Position numbers and translations under genes: made by a program. The notes below the pieces were generated by a model. That model was not told the DNA's origin. It ran no database searches and was given only the letters and a program-made list of their open reading frames with translations. A DNA stretch of 48,861 bases, the filler included, from Catajapyx aquilonaris (taxonomy: Eukaryota), in assembly GCA_000934665.2 (NCBI GenBank). It is 2 parts of 2 records of this genome, joined end to end, with 100 filler letters (N's around TTAATTAATTAA, not from the genome) between each part and the next. Parts side by side here need not be neighbours in the genome. Positions count along the whole stretch, not along the records: positions 1 to 24,383 come from JYFJ02005525.1; 1 more part is not named here. One strand, given 5' to 3'. Of this stretch, positions 5,980 to 29,045 are shown piece by piece. Position 1 is the stretch's first letter. Each line of letters starts with the position of its first letter.

Positions 5980-7600
5980 CTATTTGGTGGTATCAATTCC
6001 GCTGTACTGTCGCAAAAGCTTGACCACATCGTCGTACAGCAAGGGCACCACATTTCTGGCCACAACGTAGTCAGAGTGAGAGAAAAGAGGCCACTTGACC
6101 TGGAATGACCCGACCAGGTTGGGAAGCTGGTCCGCTATAGTCTTCACGTCCTATAGGAAACGATATATATTTAAAAAAGGGAATTAAATGTAACACATCA
6201 AGAAGAGACTGACCTTTGGATGTGCTAACCAATCGTTAAGAGACCAAAACATGGCCACAGGAGCTGTGACGTTCCCCAGGTTGTAAAGAGGCGGTGATGC
6301 CGAGTTGTACCGGCGGAGGTTCTCCTCAGGTCCGAAGTCGTACTTGCGAAACAAACCGCTCTCTATCCATTGCACGTATTGCAAGCCAGTGCGAAACGAA
6401 AATGAAGACGGAAAGTACGGCAGAATTTCTTCCATCTTCTCCTATAGGAGTGACAGAGTGTAAAATGTTGCTTCCAATTATGGAAAAACACACACTGTAT
6501 TACACCATTTCAATACACATAAATAATGTACTTGCCCTGTCAACTTCGTCCATGTCGAATCCGAGAACAAATCCAACCACAGATATGCAAATCACGTTTG
6601 TGTAGCGATTCATCAGACAAAGTGACGCCACAAAATTTTGTAATTCAGGAAGGGGGTATCCCAGGTACAGTATTCCTAAGCTCGTCAACAAATTCTGGAA
6701 AATAAGGGTAATGATGACTTGGATGGTTTTTCACCAGTCGATTCTCTTCATTTGATGCAACGGTGCGTACTCACTGACAGATCATTCAAAACCGAAAATG
6801 GTGGCAAAAGTTGGACTCCAGGTCCATTGGCATGGACAGGAGCTGTGGGGGTTGCCAGTGTGATGGCCAAGAAAACCTTTGAGTTGTACTCGGGTCTTCC
6901 GGACAAGGATTCGTACAGTAGAGTGCCTCCCATCGAGTGTCCAATGTAGCCCACCTTCTGCTGACCTGTCTTGTCCAGCACATAGTCTACGACCGCTGGT
7001 ATGTCAATTGTGGACATTTCATCCTGGCTATATCCCCAAAATTCAGGTTGCTGTGCGGTCATCGTCACGTGTCTTCTGGAGTGAGGAGTGCCTCTTTGGC
7101 TGAGCAGCCAGAGGTCAAACCCAACGTCAGGTAGTATGTAACCTTTTTAGCATCATGATAAGTTTGTCTGAATTATGATGAAACTATTTATGATCGCACC
7201 TCCTGTTGAAATCGTGATATTTACCTAAGCCTCTTGAAGGTGGTCCAATCAGGTAGCTCATTACCGAATCTCCCAGTCCATGAGTTACGATGACTGGTGG
7301 TCTCTTGGTGTTGTTGGAGGGTGTTGCACCGTGTGGTATGCGATGGAGCGACAGGATGTACCCATCGGGTGTTACTACTTTGTGGTCTTCACAGGGGTAT
7401 CCTTTGGCTCGGACATACCCGCACTTGTTGAAGTAAACAGCAATGAATCACATGTAAGCATTCCAGCAACCAGTCACTTATTAAATGTAATTATTACTCA
7501 CAATGTCATGGCCTTCATAAATAGGAAAATTGAACAATCTCATGGCGTCCGTTCCAAGTATGACCGTCGCAGCAATTAGGATCGACTTGAGAATGTCCAT
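5980..7600 (-). CDS. Acid lipase copy 3
   Basis: Starts MDILKSILIAATVILG at 7600. Motifs GHSMGG, NDWLA, FSHSDY; TAG at 5982-5980. Same exon layout (exon 4 is 6694-6536). Confidence 0.9.
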
Positions 7601-11797: not shown

Positions 11798-12270
11798 TTC
11801 AAATCACAGCCTAAACGAGACTGACAATAATACACAGTGTCGCTGGAGGTTATTTGTTCATGTGTGGATCGTATTAATAGTATTATCTCCATTTCGTTCC
11901 CATGCATCAGTTTTATTCTCACGAGTTTTGCTCAGCGGTACAATATCCAAGGGTAGATTTCTGCAATGATCAGTAACTTCCGTAATGTATAATACCTATA
12001 ATGAACCCTGCATTTATAATTCAGTTCCTCCATATATGAATTATTTGAAGCACTTCGGCATATAGGGCCAAGGTAATTGGGCTTTATCGGTGATTGGGTT
12101 GTGCTGCAGTGTGCGTTGGCCGCTAATGACTGATGGAGCGCATGATTGGAAAGCTTTGGATGATGGCGACTACCACTTGGTGGAATATAATGAGGTTAAT
12201 TCATTATTAACCTAGCTAGTTAGGAGTGGTGAGGAGGCGCAATACTTGGGCCACAGTGCTTGGGTGAAAC

Positions 12271-14409
12271 ATGTTCGGGTTGCAAGTGCTGGTCGTTTGC
12301 TCCGTGGCCATGGCCATGTTTGGTAGCCACACATCATCATCATCATCGGGTGTTGGGAGGAACGCGTCTGGTGTGATGGGAGAGCAGGAGAAGAGGAAGG
12401 GTGGGGAGGAAGGAGAGTGGTGGGCAGTGTCCAGACTGGTGAGGGGCGTCCTGGACACGAGGGAGGACATGCGGGGATGCGGCCTGGTCCTGTCCACTGA
12501 TCTCGTCGGGTCATCGGGCGTCTGGGAGGGACTGTGGAGGCCTCTTCTCAAAGGTCACTCGGACAAGTACCTCCCGTCCTTCTCCCTCCGGACGACCTCC
12601 TTCCCACACTCCTTCACAGACTACCCCTGGCTCAAGGGTCAAGCTGACCTCTTGGACTTCACCACCGTCCCTCCTGACCTCCTCGTCACCTCCGCCTGGT
12701 CATCCTCCGTCTGCACCCTCCACCTCCTCCTCCCCTCCTCCCCGGCCTCCCTCCCACAACTGGTCATATCCACCGCCTTCAAGGTCAAGGTCAGTCCACT
12801 CGACGACCCTTTCCTCATCCACTTGTCTCGGAGGTCACCAGGGTCACTTGTGAAGGAGGGAGAGGTCCATCGAGTGCTGACCTCGCCCCCTGCCAGTGCC
12901 CTCAGGCTGAAGGTGGCCAGTCGGATGGAGGAAGGTGGACAGTTGAAGATGGAGACTGTCTGCTTCTTCTGCGCAGAATGGGGTCAACCTAAGGTCATCG
13001 ATCTCGGCCGGGTGAGCCAGACGGAATATCCGACAGTTGGCAGACTCTTCAGAAACTACGACACAAACAAGATGAACAAGAAGTCAGTTGTGATTGGAAT
13101 GTACTATGGGTCTGCTGATATGGAGGTTGTCCGAAGGAAAAAAGAAGAATTGGGAGAAGTTTTCCTCAGGATTTATGAACGAATTTACCTTTTGGTGGAG
13201 AAAAGTCTTAACTGTGTCATTTTGGAGATTTTTATGAAGGATCTGACTAGTGCCGACTTTGACCACAGGCTGGGCAATGGTACTTGGGAGGGACTGACGG
13301 GGGATCTTTTGTCAGGAAGGATTGATGGCGTAGGCCTCACAATTTACACGCAGGACACCTATCAACACACTCTCCTCACTCATCCTTTTCTTTACATACA
13401 CGCGACATTCCTCACAAGGAGACCCGGAGGAGTGGTCAGCTGGAGGGTGATCTACAGGCCCTACGTCCTCCCCTTCTGGGTGTCCTTGGGGGTCACCCTG
13501 GCCCTCCTCCCCATCGCGATGGGCAGACTCTCCCGCTGCGACCCATCTCGAGTCAGGTCAGAGGTCGAAGGGCAGCGACTGACCCTGCTGGGATCCCTCC
13601 ACGTCCTGGCCAGACACCTGATAGACCAGCCTGTTCCCTTCCCCACATCCCGCCGCTTTCTCTTCCTGGCCTTCTCCTTCCTCTTCTTCTCCACCGTGGT
13701 CATCACTGGCTACAAGGCCAAGATGGTCTCCTTCCTTACCTTTCCCACGAGGGAGTTTGTCCCGAGGAACTTCAGGGAAGCGGTGGAATCGGATTGGACA
13801 GGAGAAGCTGACATGATCAGTTTTCTTCTCTGGAAGAAATACCTTTCTTTTGTCGACGATCCTTTCTACCACTCACTAGATGCGAAACTGTCCATGGGTG
13901 AGAGTATATGGAGTTTCCTGCAGAGGATACAAAATCAGCAGCTGGCCTGCGCTGGTATCAATCTGATCTTGGATCAGAAGATTTACCTCCTTCGAGACAC
14001 TTCTGGGCAGCCAACATTCCGTTACTCCGATGACCACATACTTCCTAGTTACAGTGGGGCGAGTTTCCCCCGTGGTCAAACCATGGAATATCACATCGGA
14101 TCTAAATTCGTCAGATTTACAAATGAAAATGACCTGTTTTCAGTGTTCTTGCGTGACCTCATGTACCTTATGTTCCTCCGTTCCTTGGATGGAATCCGGG
14201 CCAGGGAGAGGGACAACCCCCAAAAGGCAGAGGAAGTGTTGACCAGGACAAAGCTCTCTGCCGTCTTCAACATGTGGTTGGTGGGACTGGGTGTTGCTCT
14301 GGGTGCATTGGCATTTGAAATCTCGAGTCGAAAGTGCAGCCAAAAGAGAAATGAAGGGAAGTGTAAAAACCAGAAGAGACACTTAGGAGCTTGCCAGCAA
14401 TTATTGTGA
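12271..14409 (+). CDS. Divergent, intronless ionotropic receptor (variant iGluR, chemosensory IR family), 712 aa
   Basis: Signal-like N-terminus; S1 motif NGTWEGLTGDLLSGRID; pre-M1/M1 WRVIYRPYVLPFWVSLGVTL; FFSTVVITGYKAKMVSFLTFP (SYTANLAAF-equivalent); last TM LSAVFNMWLVGLGVALGALAFE. Confidence 0.88.
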   Translation: MFGLQVLVVCSVAMAMFGSHTSSSSSGVGRNASGVMGEQEKRKGGEEGEWWAVSRLVRGVLDTREDMRGCGLVLSTDLVGSSGVWEGLWRPLLKGHSDKYLPSFSLRTTSFPHSFTDYPWLKGQADLLDFTTVPPDLLVTSAWSSSVCTLHLLLPSSPASLPQLVISTAFKVKVSPLDDPFLIHLSRRSPGSLVKEGEVHRVLTSPPASALRLKVASRMEEGGQLKMETVCFFCAEWGQPKVIDLGRVSQTEYPTVGRLFRNYDTNKMNKKSVVIGMYYGSADMEVVRRKKEELGEVFLRIYERIYLLVEKSLNCVILEIFMKDLTSADFDHRLGNGTWEGLTGDLLSGRIDGVGLTIYTQDTYQHTLLTHPFLYIHATFLTRRPGGVVSWRVIYRPYVLPFWVSLGVTLALLPIAMGRLSRCDPSRVRSEVEGQRLTLLGSLHVLARHLIDQPVPFPTSRRFLFLAFSFLFFSTVVITGYKAKMVSFLTFPTREFVPRNFREAVESDWTGEADMISFLLWKKYLSFVDDPFYHSLDAKLSMGESIWSFLQRIQNQQLACAGINLILDQKIYLLRDTSGQPTFRYSDDHILPSYSGASFPRGQTMEYHIGSKFVRFTNENDLFSVFLRDLMYLMFLRSLDGIRARERDNPQKAEEVLTRTKLSAVFNMWLVGLGVALGALAFEISSRKCSQKRNEGKCKNQKRHLGACQQLL

Positions 14410-21966: not shown

Positions 21967-22635
21967 AATTATCACAAAAAACAATTCCTATGGAATTGTA
22001 AAAAAAGGAAAGTAAGATCCAAGTGACGGATAGAAATTACTGAAACAAGACTGGGCTGCGTAAGATCTTCACCATATGGGTAAATGTAACCCGGAGATCT
22101 TACTTCCGCATTTAACGTTTTACAAGATGGTGTTGATCAAGTCATCTTTGTGCTGGGTGTTAGCTGGGTGCTGGTGTTAGTATTAGTGATTGTAGGGCTG
22201 AGAATAGTATTCCCAAGGGTTTATAGGCTGGTTTTTTGAATGATGATTGGTTAAATACTTATGACTTGCTAACAGTAAGTGATTACTTGTCTGGTTGGTT
22301 GGAGATTGGTTGTTCGGAAGGTTGATTTTTCTTGGTTGTTCCATTGATTAAATGAGGTCCTGGTTGGTTGATTGATTTATTGGTTAATCGATTAGTTGGG
22401 GGGCTAGGATGTTAATTGGTTAACAGAATGGTTTATTAGACTCTGGATCTTTTAGACAATTTCTAACCTGACATCTTGTAAAACGTTAAATGCGGAAGTA
22501 AGATCTCTGGGTTACATTTACCCATATGGTGAAGATCTTACGCAGCCCAGTCTTGTTTCAGTAATTTCTATCCGTCACTTAGATCTTACTTTCCTTTTTT
22601 TTACAATTCCATAGGAATTGTTTTTTGTGATAATT
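21967..22635. mobile_element. Foldback/MITE with about 163-bp near-perfect terminal inverted repeats
   Basis: 21967-22129 is the reverse complement of 22472-22635, with few mismatches; G/T-skewed spacer. Confidence 0.8.
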
Positions 22636-22829
22636 GCAGTTATTTTTTGACAAAGCAATATGAACAAGTAGTTATACTCATTAATGTATTCATGTTTAGA
22701 AGAGATGCAAATTGCATTCGTTGTGTATGATTTTAAAAAATTTATAATGTTTTGAAAATGGGAATAAATAATTTGCTTACGTATCACATATTTTATTTGG
22801 AAACTAAGAAGGATGGGTTGTCTCAGCCT

Positions 22830-24383
22830 TCAGAGAGGTAGGAGAAATATGCAGACTGCGTCCCTAATCATTCTCCTCGGATCCGAAGTAGTGGTCATCT
22901 GCTGGTCGTTAAAGTGTAGCCAACTACCTTCACCCTTCACTAAAGCAGTGTAGTGGTTGTAATTCATTGAGACTCCATGGTCTAATAGGATTGCACTGCT
23001 TTTGAATTGCTTGAATCCAACTGATATAATATGGTCACTTAGGTCGAAATCTGTTATGCTGGCGTCCGACCTTTCCCCTCCACTTTCATCGTGACATTCA
23101 AGGTGCAGGATGAGGCAACCTTGTACGTTACTTAAAATGCAAGTCTTGGCAGCAACCCCAGTGCGCTTACAAGACGGGCATGGTACTCCTTCGTCCCTCT
23201 GCTGCAACAGGACGAAGAGAGACACACACTCTCTCGGCACGATCAGAGAGAGATACAGCCGAGTTTCCTCTGCCCCTTCCCATCTGGCGTGGCAGAAGGA
23301 ACACTCATATTCATCGTGGCATCGGTGAGTGCCCCAGTCTCTTAGGTGTAGGTACAGGCAAATCTTCGAACAGGAATTCGATGAACTCTAAAGAGTCTTG
23401 CTGTTTCTCCCCGTCGAATCCTCTACCCAGAGCTCTTCTGACCCCGAATGACGAGGGAGCGACGACGTCATTAGTGGCCGGTGCCGTTGTGTTGGACACT
23501 CTCCTCTTCGCAGGGGGACGCTGAGAAGGTCGGTGTTGTGCGAGAGCTGTTTTAGGGCCTTTAAAACGCTGCTGCTTCCCTTCGAGGCCGAGATTCTTGT
23601 CCTGAGGTCTGGCTGCGCGAAGAGACATACCAAGGCAGCGTTGGCATAGCAAGAAACATTTGGACTTGGATTGTCGAACCCCCTAAGTGATATTTCTGAT
23701 GCGGAGGAGACTGCATGTGGCCGCTTCGTTGTTTTCTTGTGTAAGAGCAATGGAGGCATTGATCGGGTCTCCCGGAGTCTATTGTATTCCCTCACTTTGT
23801 CACGCAGCTCACGTTGGCCTTGATGCAGCGTTCATCTAGGTGAAGGATGTATAGTCTGTCCAGCGCCTGGACCCTCGAGAGCGCGACGTACGCCATTCCT
23901 CTTGCGAACACGGACTTGCTGAGGTCCACCAAAGCGGAATCCAGAGTCAGCTCCTGAGATTTTGTGGATGGTGATGGCGTATGCTAGTATCAGTGGGAAC
24001 TGTTTCCTCTCCGCGTATATGTTGGAGCCGAGCTCGAACTTGACAAACACACCTGCAGATATCGACTTTTCGTCGTTTGGGATGTTGTCAAAGTTGATCT
24101 TGACTGACGACGAGATGCGGCGGTTATTCTCCATCCTCCAGCCAGACACGGTGCACATTGCGCCGTTCACCAGTCCTTCCTGCACGTCGATGTTGCGTCG
24201 CAGCATGACGCGGCAACAACCAACTCCCAGGATGAGGACAGTCTCGAGGCCGGCCGTACGCGAGGCGTCCTCTCGCAGTCTAGACTGTGCTTGCTTCCCC
24301 TCTTCCAGCCAGCCTTGTTGCCTGCTGTGAGCTTGTCCTCTGCCTCCAGAAGGACAGTTGTATCCAGGCACGACGCACGAAGC
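22830..24383 (-). pseudogene. Helitron-like PIF1 helicase C-terminus followed by a ubiquitin-specific protease (peptidase C19) domain; frameshifted, 5' end lost in the gap
   Basis: PIF1 motifs: RVMLRRNIDVQEGLVNGA, RKQFPLILAYAITIHK/SQELTLD, GMAYVALSRV. USP motifs: GFDNPSPNVSCYANAAL (Cys box), QQDSLEF, CSFC..CPSC, HGVSMNYNHYTALVK..WLHFND (His/Asp box). Confidence 0.8.
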
Positions 24384-24483
24384 NNNNNNNNNNNNNNNNN
24401 NNNNNNNNNNNNNNNNNNNNNNNNNNNTTAATTAATTAANNNNNNNNNNNNNNNNNNNNNNNNNNNNNNNNNNNNNNNNNNNN
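24384..24483. other. Assembly gap/artificial linker N44-TTAATTAATTAA-N44
   Basis: Exactly 100 bp and symmetric, with a central 12-mer that puts stops in all six frames. Confidence 0.95.
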
Positions 24484-25214
24484 CTCTCTATCCTCCCTCT
24501 CTCTCCCCTCCTCCTCCTCCTCCCCCCCCCGCGCGAGACAGGTGGAAGCTACACAGTCCTAAACATGCCACGGCCGAAGTCTCAGTATATTCCCGATGAT
24601 TTTGACCAGCGCGTGTATTACTCGAGAATCCTCGTATACCCCAGGGATTTGCATAATTTTGCGTCATCCCAAACCCGTACATAGTAGTCATGCGGGCTCC
24701 TCCGTCTAATCGACTCTCCGATAATTGCTTTAATTTTTTTTATATATATTTTTTGAGAAAATGGGCTGTATAATTAAGTGGAGTCGACTGTACATGCACG
24801 TATGCAAGGCGGGAATTCGTCATGGCGAATCATGGAATCTGGAAGAATGTTACCTTCACCCACTATTGCTGCATCCTCCTCCATAATCGAGAATGGAACT
24901 ACCCAGTAGGGAAGCTTTGACAGACTCATGTGTGGTGCAGTATACAGACATCTTGAAATGAGGCGCCTTCTTCCAAAACCCGATAAATCCAAGATAAATG
25001 GTTCCGAGATAATTGAGAAAAAGCTGTGGTGCCGAAGCTAATTAATATTACTAGACCGGCCCAAGTCCATCTGCTACATATGTGGATGCTGCATATGATG
25101 AGCTTTTACAAGAAAATGATCAACATCGTCAAGTCGTAGTTTCAGGAATAGTCGTTGTGGATATATCGATTTTTGCTGCAAAGAGAGTGGATTTGGCGGT
25201 TTTTGCAACATTGA

Positions 25215-25785
25215 GGATGAGGCACAAATATATGGGCGAGTGGCCTTCCGTTCGATTTGCCTGAAATTCGGATATGTTGTAGCCCAGACCATCCTGATCA
25301 ATGTTAGATAGGGACATTTCGAGGTAGGACCTACAGGGAGCGTGCTATTGACCTCCGAAGGTCATATGGGATATGATCTAGTTTTCCATTCGATTTGGCT
25401 GAAAATGGGATATGTTGCAGCCCAGACCATCCTGATCAATGTTGAATAGGGACATTTCGAAGTAGGACCTCCAGGGAGCATGCTAATTGCTATTCATCGA
25501 AGAGGCTAGAAGACTGCTGTGGGAGAAACCTCGCTTCCTAATACATTGGCCCAATGAATGTTGAAGTGCAGCTGGAGGAATGCAATAACCATTGAGTTCC
25601 TGAGTCTTATTGTAGTCTACTACTCCCCCTATTACCTTCGGAGGTCATTAGCATGCTCCCTGTAGGTCCTACCTCGAAATGTCCCTATCCAACATTGATC
25701 AGGATGGTCTGGGCTACAACATATCCCATTTTCAGGCAAATCGAACGGAAGGCCACTCGCCCATATATTTGGTGCCTGATCCTTT
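25215..25785. repeat. Cluster of about 110-130-bp repeat units: two direct copies and one inverted copy
   Basis: ttcgatttg.ctgaaa..ggatatgttg.agcccagaccatcctgatcaatgtt..atagggacatttcga.gtaggacct occurs at about 25250 and 25390; its reverse complement is at about 25635-25785. Confidence 0.7.
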
Positions 25786-27515
25786 GAAAACCCAGTGGTG
25801 ACTCCATTACAGGAACATCAGCTTCAGGGTCGTGGCTGAAAGTGGTGTGAAGCAGAGTCGGAGTGATTATGATAATCATTGTGAATATTTCAGTCAAGTA
25901 TCATAACAGCATTACCAGCATAACTGGTATTTTTATGTATAGAGTCTTCATTTACCTGGGTCCCGCCACGGGTTCATCCGGCACGTACATCTTGGAGCAG
26001 GAACCTATGTAGTCTGACTGCCAGACGACTGCCTTGACAAAGAACGCGTACGGGAGGAAGCACGACTCACTGTGGTGCCATGTGTAGCTTAGAGATGGAT
26101 TTGTCTGAGTACGAAAGATATCCCAGGCCAACTAGAGCTGTTCACGCTGGATTTGTCGGGTTATGGATGATTCGGTGGATTTGTCGGTTTTAGAAACATA
26201 GAATATGAACTTCCTGCCTGCATTTGTCGGGTTTTGCATGATCGGCCTCTTTTCTTCAGGCCATTACAGCCGCATTTGTCGATGTTTGCTGAATATTTTG
26301 TCGTTACGTGATGAAACACATCTTGAAGAACATATTTCCACCCTTAACTCATTTTTTTTGGAAATTGGATTTGTCGGGTTTTGGAAGAAGGTGCCTCAAA
26401 TAATTGTCACCACCCCATGGATTGCATATGCTATGACTCATGAATATGATGTGCCATACACAGAAAGCGTTAAGTGTTGGCAGCTGACAACTCCGTTCTC
26501 GTATGTTTCTAGGCGGAATTATAATAAATGAAGGCACATTGTCTGTTGGTGAGGGTGGCAGGGGACATCGAAAGTTGCATACTTCCGATTTTGGTACGAT
26601 TGGCTCTGTAGAGTGGATTACAAGCAGGCAAAGACTGAAGTGTAGCAAGGTAAAATTATGTATGGGTGCAGAAATATACTGGTACTCGAATCGAAACAAA
26701 ACAGTTACTGACATTCCACTGACAAGATCAGTCTGAATGGGTCTTTCAAACAATTAGTGATAATTTTGATGTGGTGATTCCATGAATGGTGTACTTTAAT
26801 CCATAATAATGATGGTTATAGTTACCTTGTGATCTGATGGCCCCTTAGGGATCCTATTTTATCCTCCAAATTTATTATACTACAGTGTGGATGAATTTTT
26901 GAGAGTGGGAGGAAGCGTTCATCCTAAATTAATTACCAGAGATAATATCATTACTTCAGACTTTAGCCCTTGTTCTATTGGGTCATTCAATTGTTTGCTA
27001 AGATGGGCGTGGTAATATGACGAGCCATGCATCCTACATGTAATGGGTGAACAAGTTTGATAAATTCTTATGGAGTTACAAGACAGCGTGTTTGTTGGCC
27101 AAGGACTATAAATGATTTAAACAGATTCCTTACAAATACGTGGAGAGGGCTCTAACTGAAAATAAGAAGAAGATGCTTGGTCAGGCGGTATTTTGAAAAG
27201 AGATCTTTGTGAGATAACCAGGCCATGATTGAGAGTGAATGCCTCTGTATAGGAGGCACTCATTCATTTGGGTCTGTTGTAATGAGAGGGGTGGATTGGA
27301 GACCCTTCTGCGGGAACATCCTCTTTCAACTTAGTATGTGTAGGAGTTGCGAGTGACTTAAGGTAGTAATCAGCTAGTTGACTTGATGAAGTAAAGGCAT
27401 CAGGGTAGTTGTTATTACCAAAAGAGAATGTGTATTTAAGAGCAGATGAGTAATTTTCGTATTTTAATGTGATAAAAGTGAGCAAATGAGTGTTGTTGTT
27501 CTCATTCATAAGTGT

Positions 27516-27575: not shown

Positions 27576-27754
27576 TGGCTCAGAATTCTATTTACAAATG
27601 AAAAGCCTACGTGTAGGGGAGGATGCACAGTTCTTTTAAATACCAATCCCAATACATGACATTTCTCTATAACAGGGGTGGTCAGAAATGAATGAGACTC
27701 AAGTCAATTAACAAAAGATAAGACTTCACAAGGTGAAGTGATAAAATCTAACTC

Positions 27755-28334
27755 ACAAGGGAAGGTCACAGGGTGATAATGACGGATCTTGATGAAATTT
27801 AACATGCTAATACAGGACAATATATGATACCCAAAAATGAAATATTTCGTGCGGAGGCCGATATTTGCAAAAGTTATGACGTCTTAAAGTTCCAAAAAAA
27901 CCCATTTTCATTAAGTTCATAATGGGATTACATTAGCGACCACATATAAGACCACATTGAAGTGTGTAATCAGTTTCTACACTTTGTCTCATCGGAAAAA
28001 AGTCCTACATAACGGCTCTGTATCTCTTACGGTTTAGGCCTTGATACCTGTCCACAGACGGACGGACGGACAGACAGAGCTGTTCTGTAGGACTTTTTTC
28101 CTATGAGAAAAAGTGTAGAAACTGATTACACACTTCAATGTCATTATATGTGGTCCCTAATGTAATACCATTATGAATGAAAATGTATTATTTTTGGAAC
28201 TTTAAGCCGTCATAACTTTTGCAAATATGGGCCTCCGCACGAAATATTTCATTTTTGGGTATCATATATTGTCCTGTATTAGCATGTTAAATTTCATCAA
28301 GATCCGTCATTATCACCCCGCGACCTTCCCTTGT
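27755..28334. mobile_element. Foldback element with about 250-bp inverted arms and a central (GACR)n microsatellite
   Basis: Termini acaagggaaggtc... and ...gaccttcccttgt; arms about 27755-28009 and 28086-28334; centre acagacggacggacggacagacag. Confidence 0.75.
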
Positions 28335-29045
28335 CAGTATAAACAATAAAGAGCAACTTGGAAAATTCAAATCAGCCCCAATCTATAACACTAGCCTATC
28401 AACAGAACAGCACATATGTAAATTGGCTCACATGATCCTATCAGGTCAGTGCTCAATATGAAACAAATTCATTTTCTATTTATATATTTTAATGTATTAT
28501 TATTTTTACCCTGTAACAACACTTCTGCCTTGAATGGCCAATATTATGTGCATATAATCAGGGTCATAAATTGCATTGAATTTTCACTGGACACTTTTAC
28601 CCATTGGCGGCAGAATTAATAAATATCAGTAAATAACACATTCAGGATAGAATAATATGGAAATCCAGGTAACTGAGACTATACTGTACCTCATTTGAAT
28701 GGGTATCACAGTGCAAGCAGTAGTAAGCAGTCATCGTGTTAAATGTCAGTTGTAGTAAACAATATGCAACTAAATAGGCTGCCACGTGTTCGTGAGAGTT
28801 TTGTTGCCGTTCATTGGTAGCCTCTCGCAATCAAAAGCCACCATCAGTGCAGTGATTGAATAAAGTCAGTGGAGTTAAAAGAACATACCATAAAAAGCTA
28901 TAGTCTACCTATCACAGGGTATCTTATCATCATCATCATCATTGGGGTGCCACATACCATTCCTGTAAAAATAGAATCACCCTGTAGAATGTAATTCATG
29001 ATGATTTGTGAGGCATGTAACAACACTACATTGTTTCTCTTGCAG

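Follow-up and report, generated by a model that had tools for sequence, protein, structure and literature searches.

A dead HLE2 rolling-circle transposon copy in Catajapyx aquilonaris and the ubiquitin-specific protease fused to RepHel in its lineage

The minus strand at positions 22830–24383 of the 48,861-nucleotide stretch of Catajapyx aquilonaris DNA analysed here (the window; assembly GCA_000934665.2) lies in what is almost certainly a dead copy of an HLE2 rolling-circle transposon, from a lineage in which a ubiquitin-specific protease (USP, peptidase C19) is fused to the C-terminus of the RepHel protein. A first-pass annotation had proposed a rolling-circle lineage of this kind, and its unbroken relatives, with helicase and USP in one ORF, bear the proposal out. 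The explanation that probably best accounts for the data as a whole is that the window copy is a deletion derivative of such an element, and that the USP of its relatives would guard their own transposase.

The window copy and its family

Six-frame translation recovered all the minus-strand motifs that the annotation had named: the PIF1 motifs QFPLILAYAITIHK and AYVALSRV, then EYNRLR (23789–23772), a short linker and an intronless USP domain with its triad. The C-terminal half of the PIF1 helicase (2B domain and last two helicase motifs, frameshifted) spans 23790–24383 (-), as placed by Pfam Pif1_2B and by alignment to the sister-family ORF L070; the helicase end, from EYNRLR, and a basic linker (~27 aa in the sister family) occupy 23691–23789 (-). 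The minimal USP, defined by Pfam, alignment and HMM, follows at 22830–23690 (-) with two internal frameshifts. It comprises a Cys box (NPSPNVSCYAN, 23672–23640), a QQD box (QQDSLEF, 23403–23383), a four-Cys zinc ribbon with CxxC pairs at 23303 and 23180, and a His/Asp box (NHYTAL, 22958–22941; WLHFND, 22922–22905), and closes with a stop codon at 22830–22832; the Cys, His and Asp positions of C19 are all present. Frameshift-aware alignment to the stop-free ORF L070:7212–9236 gave 256 identities in 500 positions (51%) and confirmed that the frame is broken, with five frameshifts (near 24288, 23960, 23790, 23548 and 23334) and one stop (23792) in place of the roughly four frameshifts first estimated; the helicase–USP junction is itself interrupted by the stop and one of the frameshifts. 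The USP part scored 455 in comparison with 27–48 for 15 shuffles and, with X placed at the breaks, matched a USP HMM made from 14 public fused proteins only at E = 1.6e-33, so a chance likeness is excluded. This agrees with the expected C19 assignment, as does Pfam UCH on the sister-family ORFs described below. Among five raw window pieces submitted to Pfam, one matched Pif1_2B above the cut-off (E = 1.7e-5), one matched UCH slightly under it (E = 1.3e-4, 22.1 bits; cut-off 23.9) and three gave nothing relevant.

The element occupies 21969–24383 (-); this is the downstream 2.4 kb of a non-autonomous HLE2 element that lacks Rep and measures ~3.1 kb when complete, as delimited by genome matches with common boundaries and differing flanks. 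The contig ends at 24383 and truncates the element there, with loss of the upstream ~0.7 kb; DNA past the assembly gap (24384–24483, N's and a stop-codon linker) lies outside this contig, and continuity of the element beyond 24483 was therefore rejected. That further DNA holds nested MITE-like inverted-repeat elements at 24959–26398 and 27751–28338 (arms of 146, 148 and 34 bp). On the other side, lipase-like (alpha/beta hydrolase) genes are arrayed in tandem through 1200–21808 (-), each unit measuring about 1.9–2.2 kb; the end of the element lies ~160 bp 5' of the start codon (ATG, 21808) of the contig's last lipase copy, whose upstream region it may have replaced. Antisense inside the array lies an intronless 713-aa ORF (12268–14409, +) that is arthropod ionotropic-receptor-like, with a weak Lig_chan match under the cut-off (E = 4e-4).

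A DNA search of the genome yielded at least 47 matches to the element at 88–100% identity, a lower bound, as 40 of 67 candidates were scored. Complete copies measure ~3.1 kb and have fixed termini and unrelated flanks (30 distinct flanks at one end, 20 at the other), and nine aligned copies diverge pairwise by 1.5–4.2%. Their layout is ~0.45 kb of upstream sequence, N-terminal coding scraps, the PIF1 C-terminal half, the USP and a 0.85 kb tail; Rep is missing from the family, and 1.8 kb of dead coding sequence is retained. At least one break was found in each of the 30 family loci examined. A frameshift near residue 303, in the helicase, occurs in 24 of the 26 loci covering that site and another at 505/506, in the USP, in 20 of 25; these two lesions, common to most copies, predate the spread of the family, and sequencing error is ruled out as their source. 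Eight of 25 copies read without a break between the last helicase motif and the catalytic Cys; the window copy is not one of them. USP dN/dS within the family is 0.77–1.42 (five copies). The common frameshifts and the drift of the USP at dN/dS about 1 establish that the window copy and its family are dead, and both are Rep-less and non-coding. The annotation's picture of an element carrying its own deubiquitinase (DUB) thus holds for intact relatives but not for this copy or its family. Among the loci examined in a non-exhaustive search for a Rep-bearing partner of the family, we found solely longer deletion derivatives (L038; L087–L089), which have no Rep core.

The upstream end of the element is a hairpin with a 10-bp stem, followed by a 10-bp subterminal repeat 22 bp from the end. 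At the other end the inverted partner of this repeat lies ~41 bp in, accompanied by a hairpin with a 7-bp stem and a ~162-bp internal inverted duplicate of that end. The terminal arm of the long repeat spans 21969–22129 in the window and holds the 10-bp repeat (22010–22019) and the 7-bp-stem hairpin near the end, and the internal arm spans 22472–22633. Similar long inverted pairs are present at the same end of sister families, on which ground an independent MITE was rejected as their origin. The terminal sequences read TT... and ...GATAA/GATA and the junctions are consistent with A^T insertion; of two mirror arms usable as empty sites, the one in L089 is clean, with a single AT, and the one in L048 is ambiguous. 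Three of 20 downstream ends are one base shorter and do not have the AT, as a variable terminal base would explain more readily than duplication of AT. Joined flanks of 10 copies matched no empty site among the loci examined, and the window lipase paralogue is too diverged to serve as one. The short asymmetric or subterminal inverted repeats and the terminal hairpins are as in HLE2, at a spacing unlike published examples; the A^T target departs from the HLE2 habit, which according to the HELIANO survey (PMC11417382) is usually T^T, and insertion at T^T without duplication was not seen here. The 5'-TC and CTRR-3' ends of canonical Helitrons (HLE1) are absent, and the A^T target is the sole feature in common with them.

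Unbroken relatives and the post-helicase slot

In three sister-family loci of the same genome, L070, L074 and L075, the helicase C-terminus and a full-length UCH domain lie in one stop-free frame (675, 473 and 436 aa, respectively). These ORFs match Pfam UCH over the whole domain at E = 5e-17 to 3e-16 (L070, 3e-16) and 60–63 bits, well past the cut-off of 23.9, and the L070 domain covers UCH 4–253 of 254. Upstream, L070 and L074 carry DUF6570 (E = 3.6e-14 and 2.3e-14), Helitron_like_N and PIF1. DUF6570 is described as an HLE2 marker (HELIANO, PMC11417382); it and an HUH Rep upstream of PIF1 occur in both loci and in public homologues, and the window copy has neither. HUH and Walker A motifs were found in L070 and in three public proteins. 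Genome copies with an upstream Rep and a PIF1–USP frame, which the first-pass annotation had thought worth seeking, are thus represented by L070 and L074, though an insertion or stops interrupt them; an uninterrupted autonomous copy was not present among the loci examined, L070 being split by a ~0.78 kb insertion and L072 and L074 having stops or frameshifts. The L070 insertion (6467–7241, ~775 bp) is solo-LTR-like, with TG...CA ends and a 4-bp target duplication, and divides an otherwise long RepHel–USP frame. At L075:838–4449 (-), an L070-family helicase C-terminus and USP lie downstream of a Rep-helicase from another HLE2 family (L099-like), either nested or chimeric. The ORF stops after the USP, and Exo_endo_phos is not among the Pfam matches; the C-terminal AP endonuclease of Helentrons sensu stricto is therefore lacking. 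A related HLE2 locus of this genome, L096, ends ~60 aa past the helicase, and no DUB was found in the 4.6 kb downstream, which indicates that the DUB domain is not universal in HLE2.

The six best-preserved loci (L070, L072, L074, L075, L078 and L086) have dN/dS values of 0.13–0.52 for the USP and 0.05–0.49 for the helicase, and two sister-family USP pairs gave Fisher p values of about 1e-7 and 3e-6 (site counts are approximate). Between the window family and L082, USP dN/dS is about 0.2–0.3. The sister-family USP is under purifying selection. For L070:7300–9236, no RNA data set was listed with the sequence, which speaks neither way.

A USP-only search of 1.84 billion representatives returned 268 matches at E ≤ 0.001, and the helicase C-terminus is also present in at least 18 among the 150 USP matches listed (phmmer). 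The complete order DUF6570–Rep–PIF1–UCH is found in single proteins, among them P0019 (2245 aa, on a 7.9 kb contig), P0009 (2998 aa, Bemisia), P0160, P0172 (Rhodnius), P0168 (Cardiocondyla) and P0179 (Acipenser). A search seeded with P0019 collected 81 long proteins, whose named sources include a sponge, a psyllid, two ants, Rhodnius, a sturgeon and a nematode. The L070 USP region alone matched none of 2415 candidate long proteins, a blank that reflects limited sensitivity, since the P0019-seeded search of the same kind succeeded. NCBI gene models could be spliced over breaks; the short-contig proteins, which nearly fill their contigs, are probably plain ORFs. The helicase–USP linker is mostly 27–80 aa in relatives. 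The PIF1–USP fusion is genuine and widespread in animals.

The slot behind the helicase is not reserved for the USP. Local HMMs placed a USP there in 31 of the 81 proteins, an OTU in 37 and both in none, in a sample biased by query choice and relatedness; of the remainder, one has an N-terminal OTU and 12 have neither USP nor OTU, including two with a C-terminal Ulp1 and several with very short tails. The Ulp1/C48 domain occupies the slot in P0234 and P0235. On an unrooted helicase tree from a quick search (88 rows, with six isoform or cluster rows and short fragments excluded, and no labelled HLE2 c/d members), two OTU-bearing groups fall among USP-bearing lineages; the tree does not give the direction of the swap. 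This alternation of USP, OTU and Ulp1 in one slot suggests selection for an activity rather than for one particular enzyme. Other arrangements were also observed. Tandem USP pairs in P0009, P0173, P0161 and P0167 have Ser for the catalytic Cys in the first copy and an intact second copy, and on the USP tree these pairs look like products of two separate duplications, one of Bemisia type and one of sponge type; OTUs are likewise paired in P0185, P0187, P0189 and P0221. Of P0092 and P0055, one has its UCH ahead of DUF6570 and the other has UCH linked to Ulp1/C48, and P0186, a parasitoid wasp HLE2 RepHel, has an N-terminal NYN domain and no C-terminal DUB.

Across 49 fused USP domains the catalytic Cys is kept in 44, the His in 45 and the Asp in 46 (three truncated), and each zinc Cys in 48–49. 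Five domains have Ser for Cys, four of which are the first copy of a tandem pair. An AlphaFold model of the L070 domain (pLDDT 89.4) has the palm–thumb–fingers fold and Cys-His-Asp/Asn triad of peptidase C19, and its top PDB matches by Foldseek are USP2, USP46 and USP35 (E = 2e-18 to 2e-17, TM about 0.67; USP2–Ub, 2.2e-18). Giant-virus USPs match this fold as well as human USP2 does, so the fold does not single out a USP donor. The domain resembles the catalytic domains of USP2, USP46 and USP21 in fold, triad, QQD box and four-Cys zinc ribbon, and differs in sharing only 16–22% identity with them, in having no accessory domains and a longer pre-Cys loop, and in being fused to a transposase. 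In canonical USPs the spacing from Asn to Cys is 5; in most fused domains the Asn lies 6 residues ahead of the catalytic Cys, and the loop usually exceeds the canonical length by at least one residue, which may alter activity or specificity relative to usual USPs. In a FastTree phylogeny of 165 USP domains, 47 of the 49 fused domains fall in one group of 92 rows (support 81); with many long branches and no named host USPs, this group does not settle a single origin or a donor. From the conserved residues and the model, the USP of the autonomous relatives is quite likely an active DUB.

Possible roles of the fused USP

We propose that the autonomous ancestor encoded a single polypeptide of ~2,000–2,300 aa with DUF6570, HUH Rep, PIF1 helicase, a short linker and a minimal C19 USP, the architecture seen in relatives. 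The derivative in the window would have lost Rep and most of the helicase and acquired frameshifts before spreading. Without coding for any protein itself, it would have been copied in trans by way of its intact ends. In the relatives, where selection and fold point to a maintained and probably active isopeptidase, the USP may strip ubiquitin off the transposase it belongs to, or off the transposition complex, which would delay clearance by the proteasome, plausibly during the covalent attachment of Rep to DNA. Published work offers analogies: HUH Reps are described as making a covalent 5'-phosphotyrosine link to DNA (PMC5876387), DNA–protein crosslinks as being cleared via ubiquitin, SPRTN, SUMO–RNF4 and proteasome routes (PMC8441304), Helitron VTDs as cleaving K48 and K63 chains and as proposed guards of transposition proteins (PMC9741609), and the symbiont protein Spaid as stabilising itself through its OTU (10.1101/2023.02.08.527603). 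By these analogies self-protection of the transposase could well be the main role of the USP, a view we hold tentatively. The first-pass annotation had suggested a function against ubiquitin-mediated silencing or degradation; a role against degradation would be plausible, and nothing in the present results supports counter-silencing. A more speculative and rather doubtful extension is that, in one HLE2 branch, the post-helicase site is a swappable anti-ubiquitin module (USP, OTU or Ulp1, one class each, sometimes as a dead-plus-live USP pair) that would strip ubiquitin or SUMO from the DNA-bound transposase and shield the rolling-circle intermediate from host DNA–protein-crosslink proteolysis.

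Alternatively, host proteins of chromatin or defence (H2A or H2B ubiquitin, PCNA, silencing factors, for example) may be the trans substrates of the USP at donor or target sites, with the fusion to a DNA-binding transposase delivering it to DNA. The nearest solved folds do include the chromatin and repair USPs USP46, USP12, USP1, USP21 and Ubp8, but these are generic matches at 16–22% identity; the domain is minimal (~280 aa) with no targeting domain or partner seen, and its exchange for OTU or Ulp1 in other proteins points to a role that is general and unspecific, which makes this reading unlikely. Still less probable is that the domain removes a ubiquitin-like modifier (SUMO or NEDD8) or processes the RepHel polyprotein instead of cleaving ubiquitin chains. 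The Ulp1/C48 domains in the same slot of P0234 and P0235, weak Pfam C98 (USPL1-like) matches on P0012 and P0020, the non-canonical loop ahead of the Cys and the reported cleavage of NEDD8 by Helitron VTDs (PMC9741609) would suit such an activity, but the best Pfam and fold matches are ubiquitin-specific USPs and the QQD and His boxes are conserved.

A neutral passenger, either a captured host retrocopy without benefit or a chance neighbour, is very improbable and largely refuted by the selection and conservation data: Helitrons are known to capture genes (PMC11417382) and some HLE2 relatives do not have a C-terminal DUB, but in most relatives, sponge, insect and fish alike, a fixed 27–80 aa separates the in-frame USP from the helicase, sister-family dN/dS is well below 1, and triad and zinc site are kept at about 25–30% overall identity. 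It is scarcely credible that the helicase and USP belong to an endogenous viral fragment or to a TIR transposon of the cut-and-paste type. In favour of this, giant-virus USPs and human USP2 fit the fold about equally, the long inverted repeat is MITE-like and the junctions are formally readable as an AT duplication of 2 bp. Against it, HUH Rep and DUF6570 are present in relatives, whose Pfam matches include neither DDE nor capsid nor any further viral gene, three of 20 ends are without the AT, the long inverted pair sits wholly at one end, and a viral-contig scan, which finds close relatives only, gave one pattern match and zero confirmed relatives. The reading we prefer remains a dead HLE2 derivative whose relatives may use the USP on behalf of their own transposase.

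Relation to known elements and significance

The idea of a transposon-borne DUB is not new, since Helentron VTDs are already reported to be active (Erven et al. 2022, PMC9741609). Nor is the pairing itself: the HELIANO survey (Li et al. 2024, PMC11417382) lists UCH (PF00443) as one of 20 stably carried domains, nearly confined to HLE2, where subgroups c and d are enriched for it. That survey, with which its preprint agrees, places UCH among 17 domains "encoded in different ORFs", that is, separate from RepHel, so the annotation's view that PIF1–USP is not a standard architecture is contradicted in part. The present lineage is like HLE2 c/d by domain content, in having a RepHel with DUF6570, no AP endonuclease and UCH; it is unlike them, with their separate ORF and with lungfish and axolotl as main hosts, in that the USP is in frame at the helicase C-terminus and occurs also in arthropods. 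OTU, which HELIANO places upstream of RepHel, takes the same C-terminal slot as the USP in the relatives studied here. The lineage shares with VTD/OTU Helentrons (PMC9741609) a DUB within the RepHel ORF, retained catalytic residues and the same proposed protective role, whereas in VTD Helentrons the DUB is of herpesviral tegument type with demonstrated activity and an AP endonuclease is C-terminal; the activity of the USP here is predicted. The non-autonomous family recalls HINE/DINE-1 (PMC4067079) and Helitron2 (PMC3627910) as described, with deletion derivatives that outnumber their partner, short subterminal inverted repeats, terminal hairpins, an extra internal inverted repeat, a variable terminal base and no clear target duplication, and differs from them in its A^T target, repeats 22 and ~41 bp from the ends, ~162-bp internal repeat and 1.8 kb of dead coding sequence.

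With the UCH–HLE2 pairing already catalogued (PMC11417382), our additions are modest, namely the in-frame fusion and the either-or DUB slot. A PIF1–USP fusion in frame, described or tested, was not found in the literature searched, a scope outside which most subscription journals and Repbase lie; the same search found no description of host restriction of Helitrons by crosslink proteolysis combined with a protein-level transposon counter-defence, and PMC10318531 mentions neither Helitron nor transposon. The locus itself is a pseudogenised repeat, and its significance, which is modest, lies in its lineage. UCH can belong to the RepHel polypeptide, against the "separate ORF" of the published survey (PMC11417382), and the USP becomes the third DUB class carried in frame by Helitron-like elements, after OTU and VTD. 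In genome annotations, RepHel–USP proteins raise the apparent number of host USP and PIF1 genes. The function of the USP can be tested directly on naturally stop-free domains, those of L070 (8340–9236) and P0019 (about residues 1960–2245), and activity, if confirmed, could bear on improving Helitron-based gene-transfer tools. Should the shielding of crosslinked transposase prove true, it would represent a protein-level counter-defence by a transposon and a route by which hosts restrict Helitrons.
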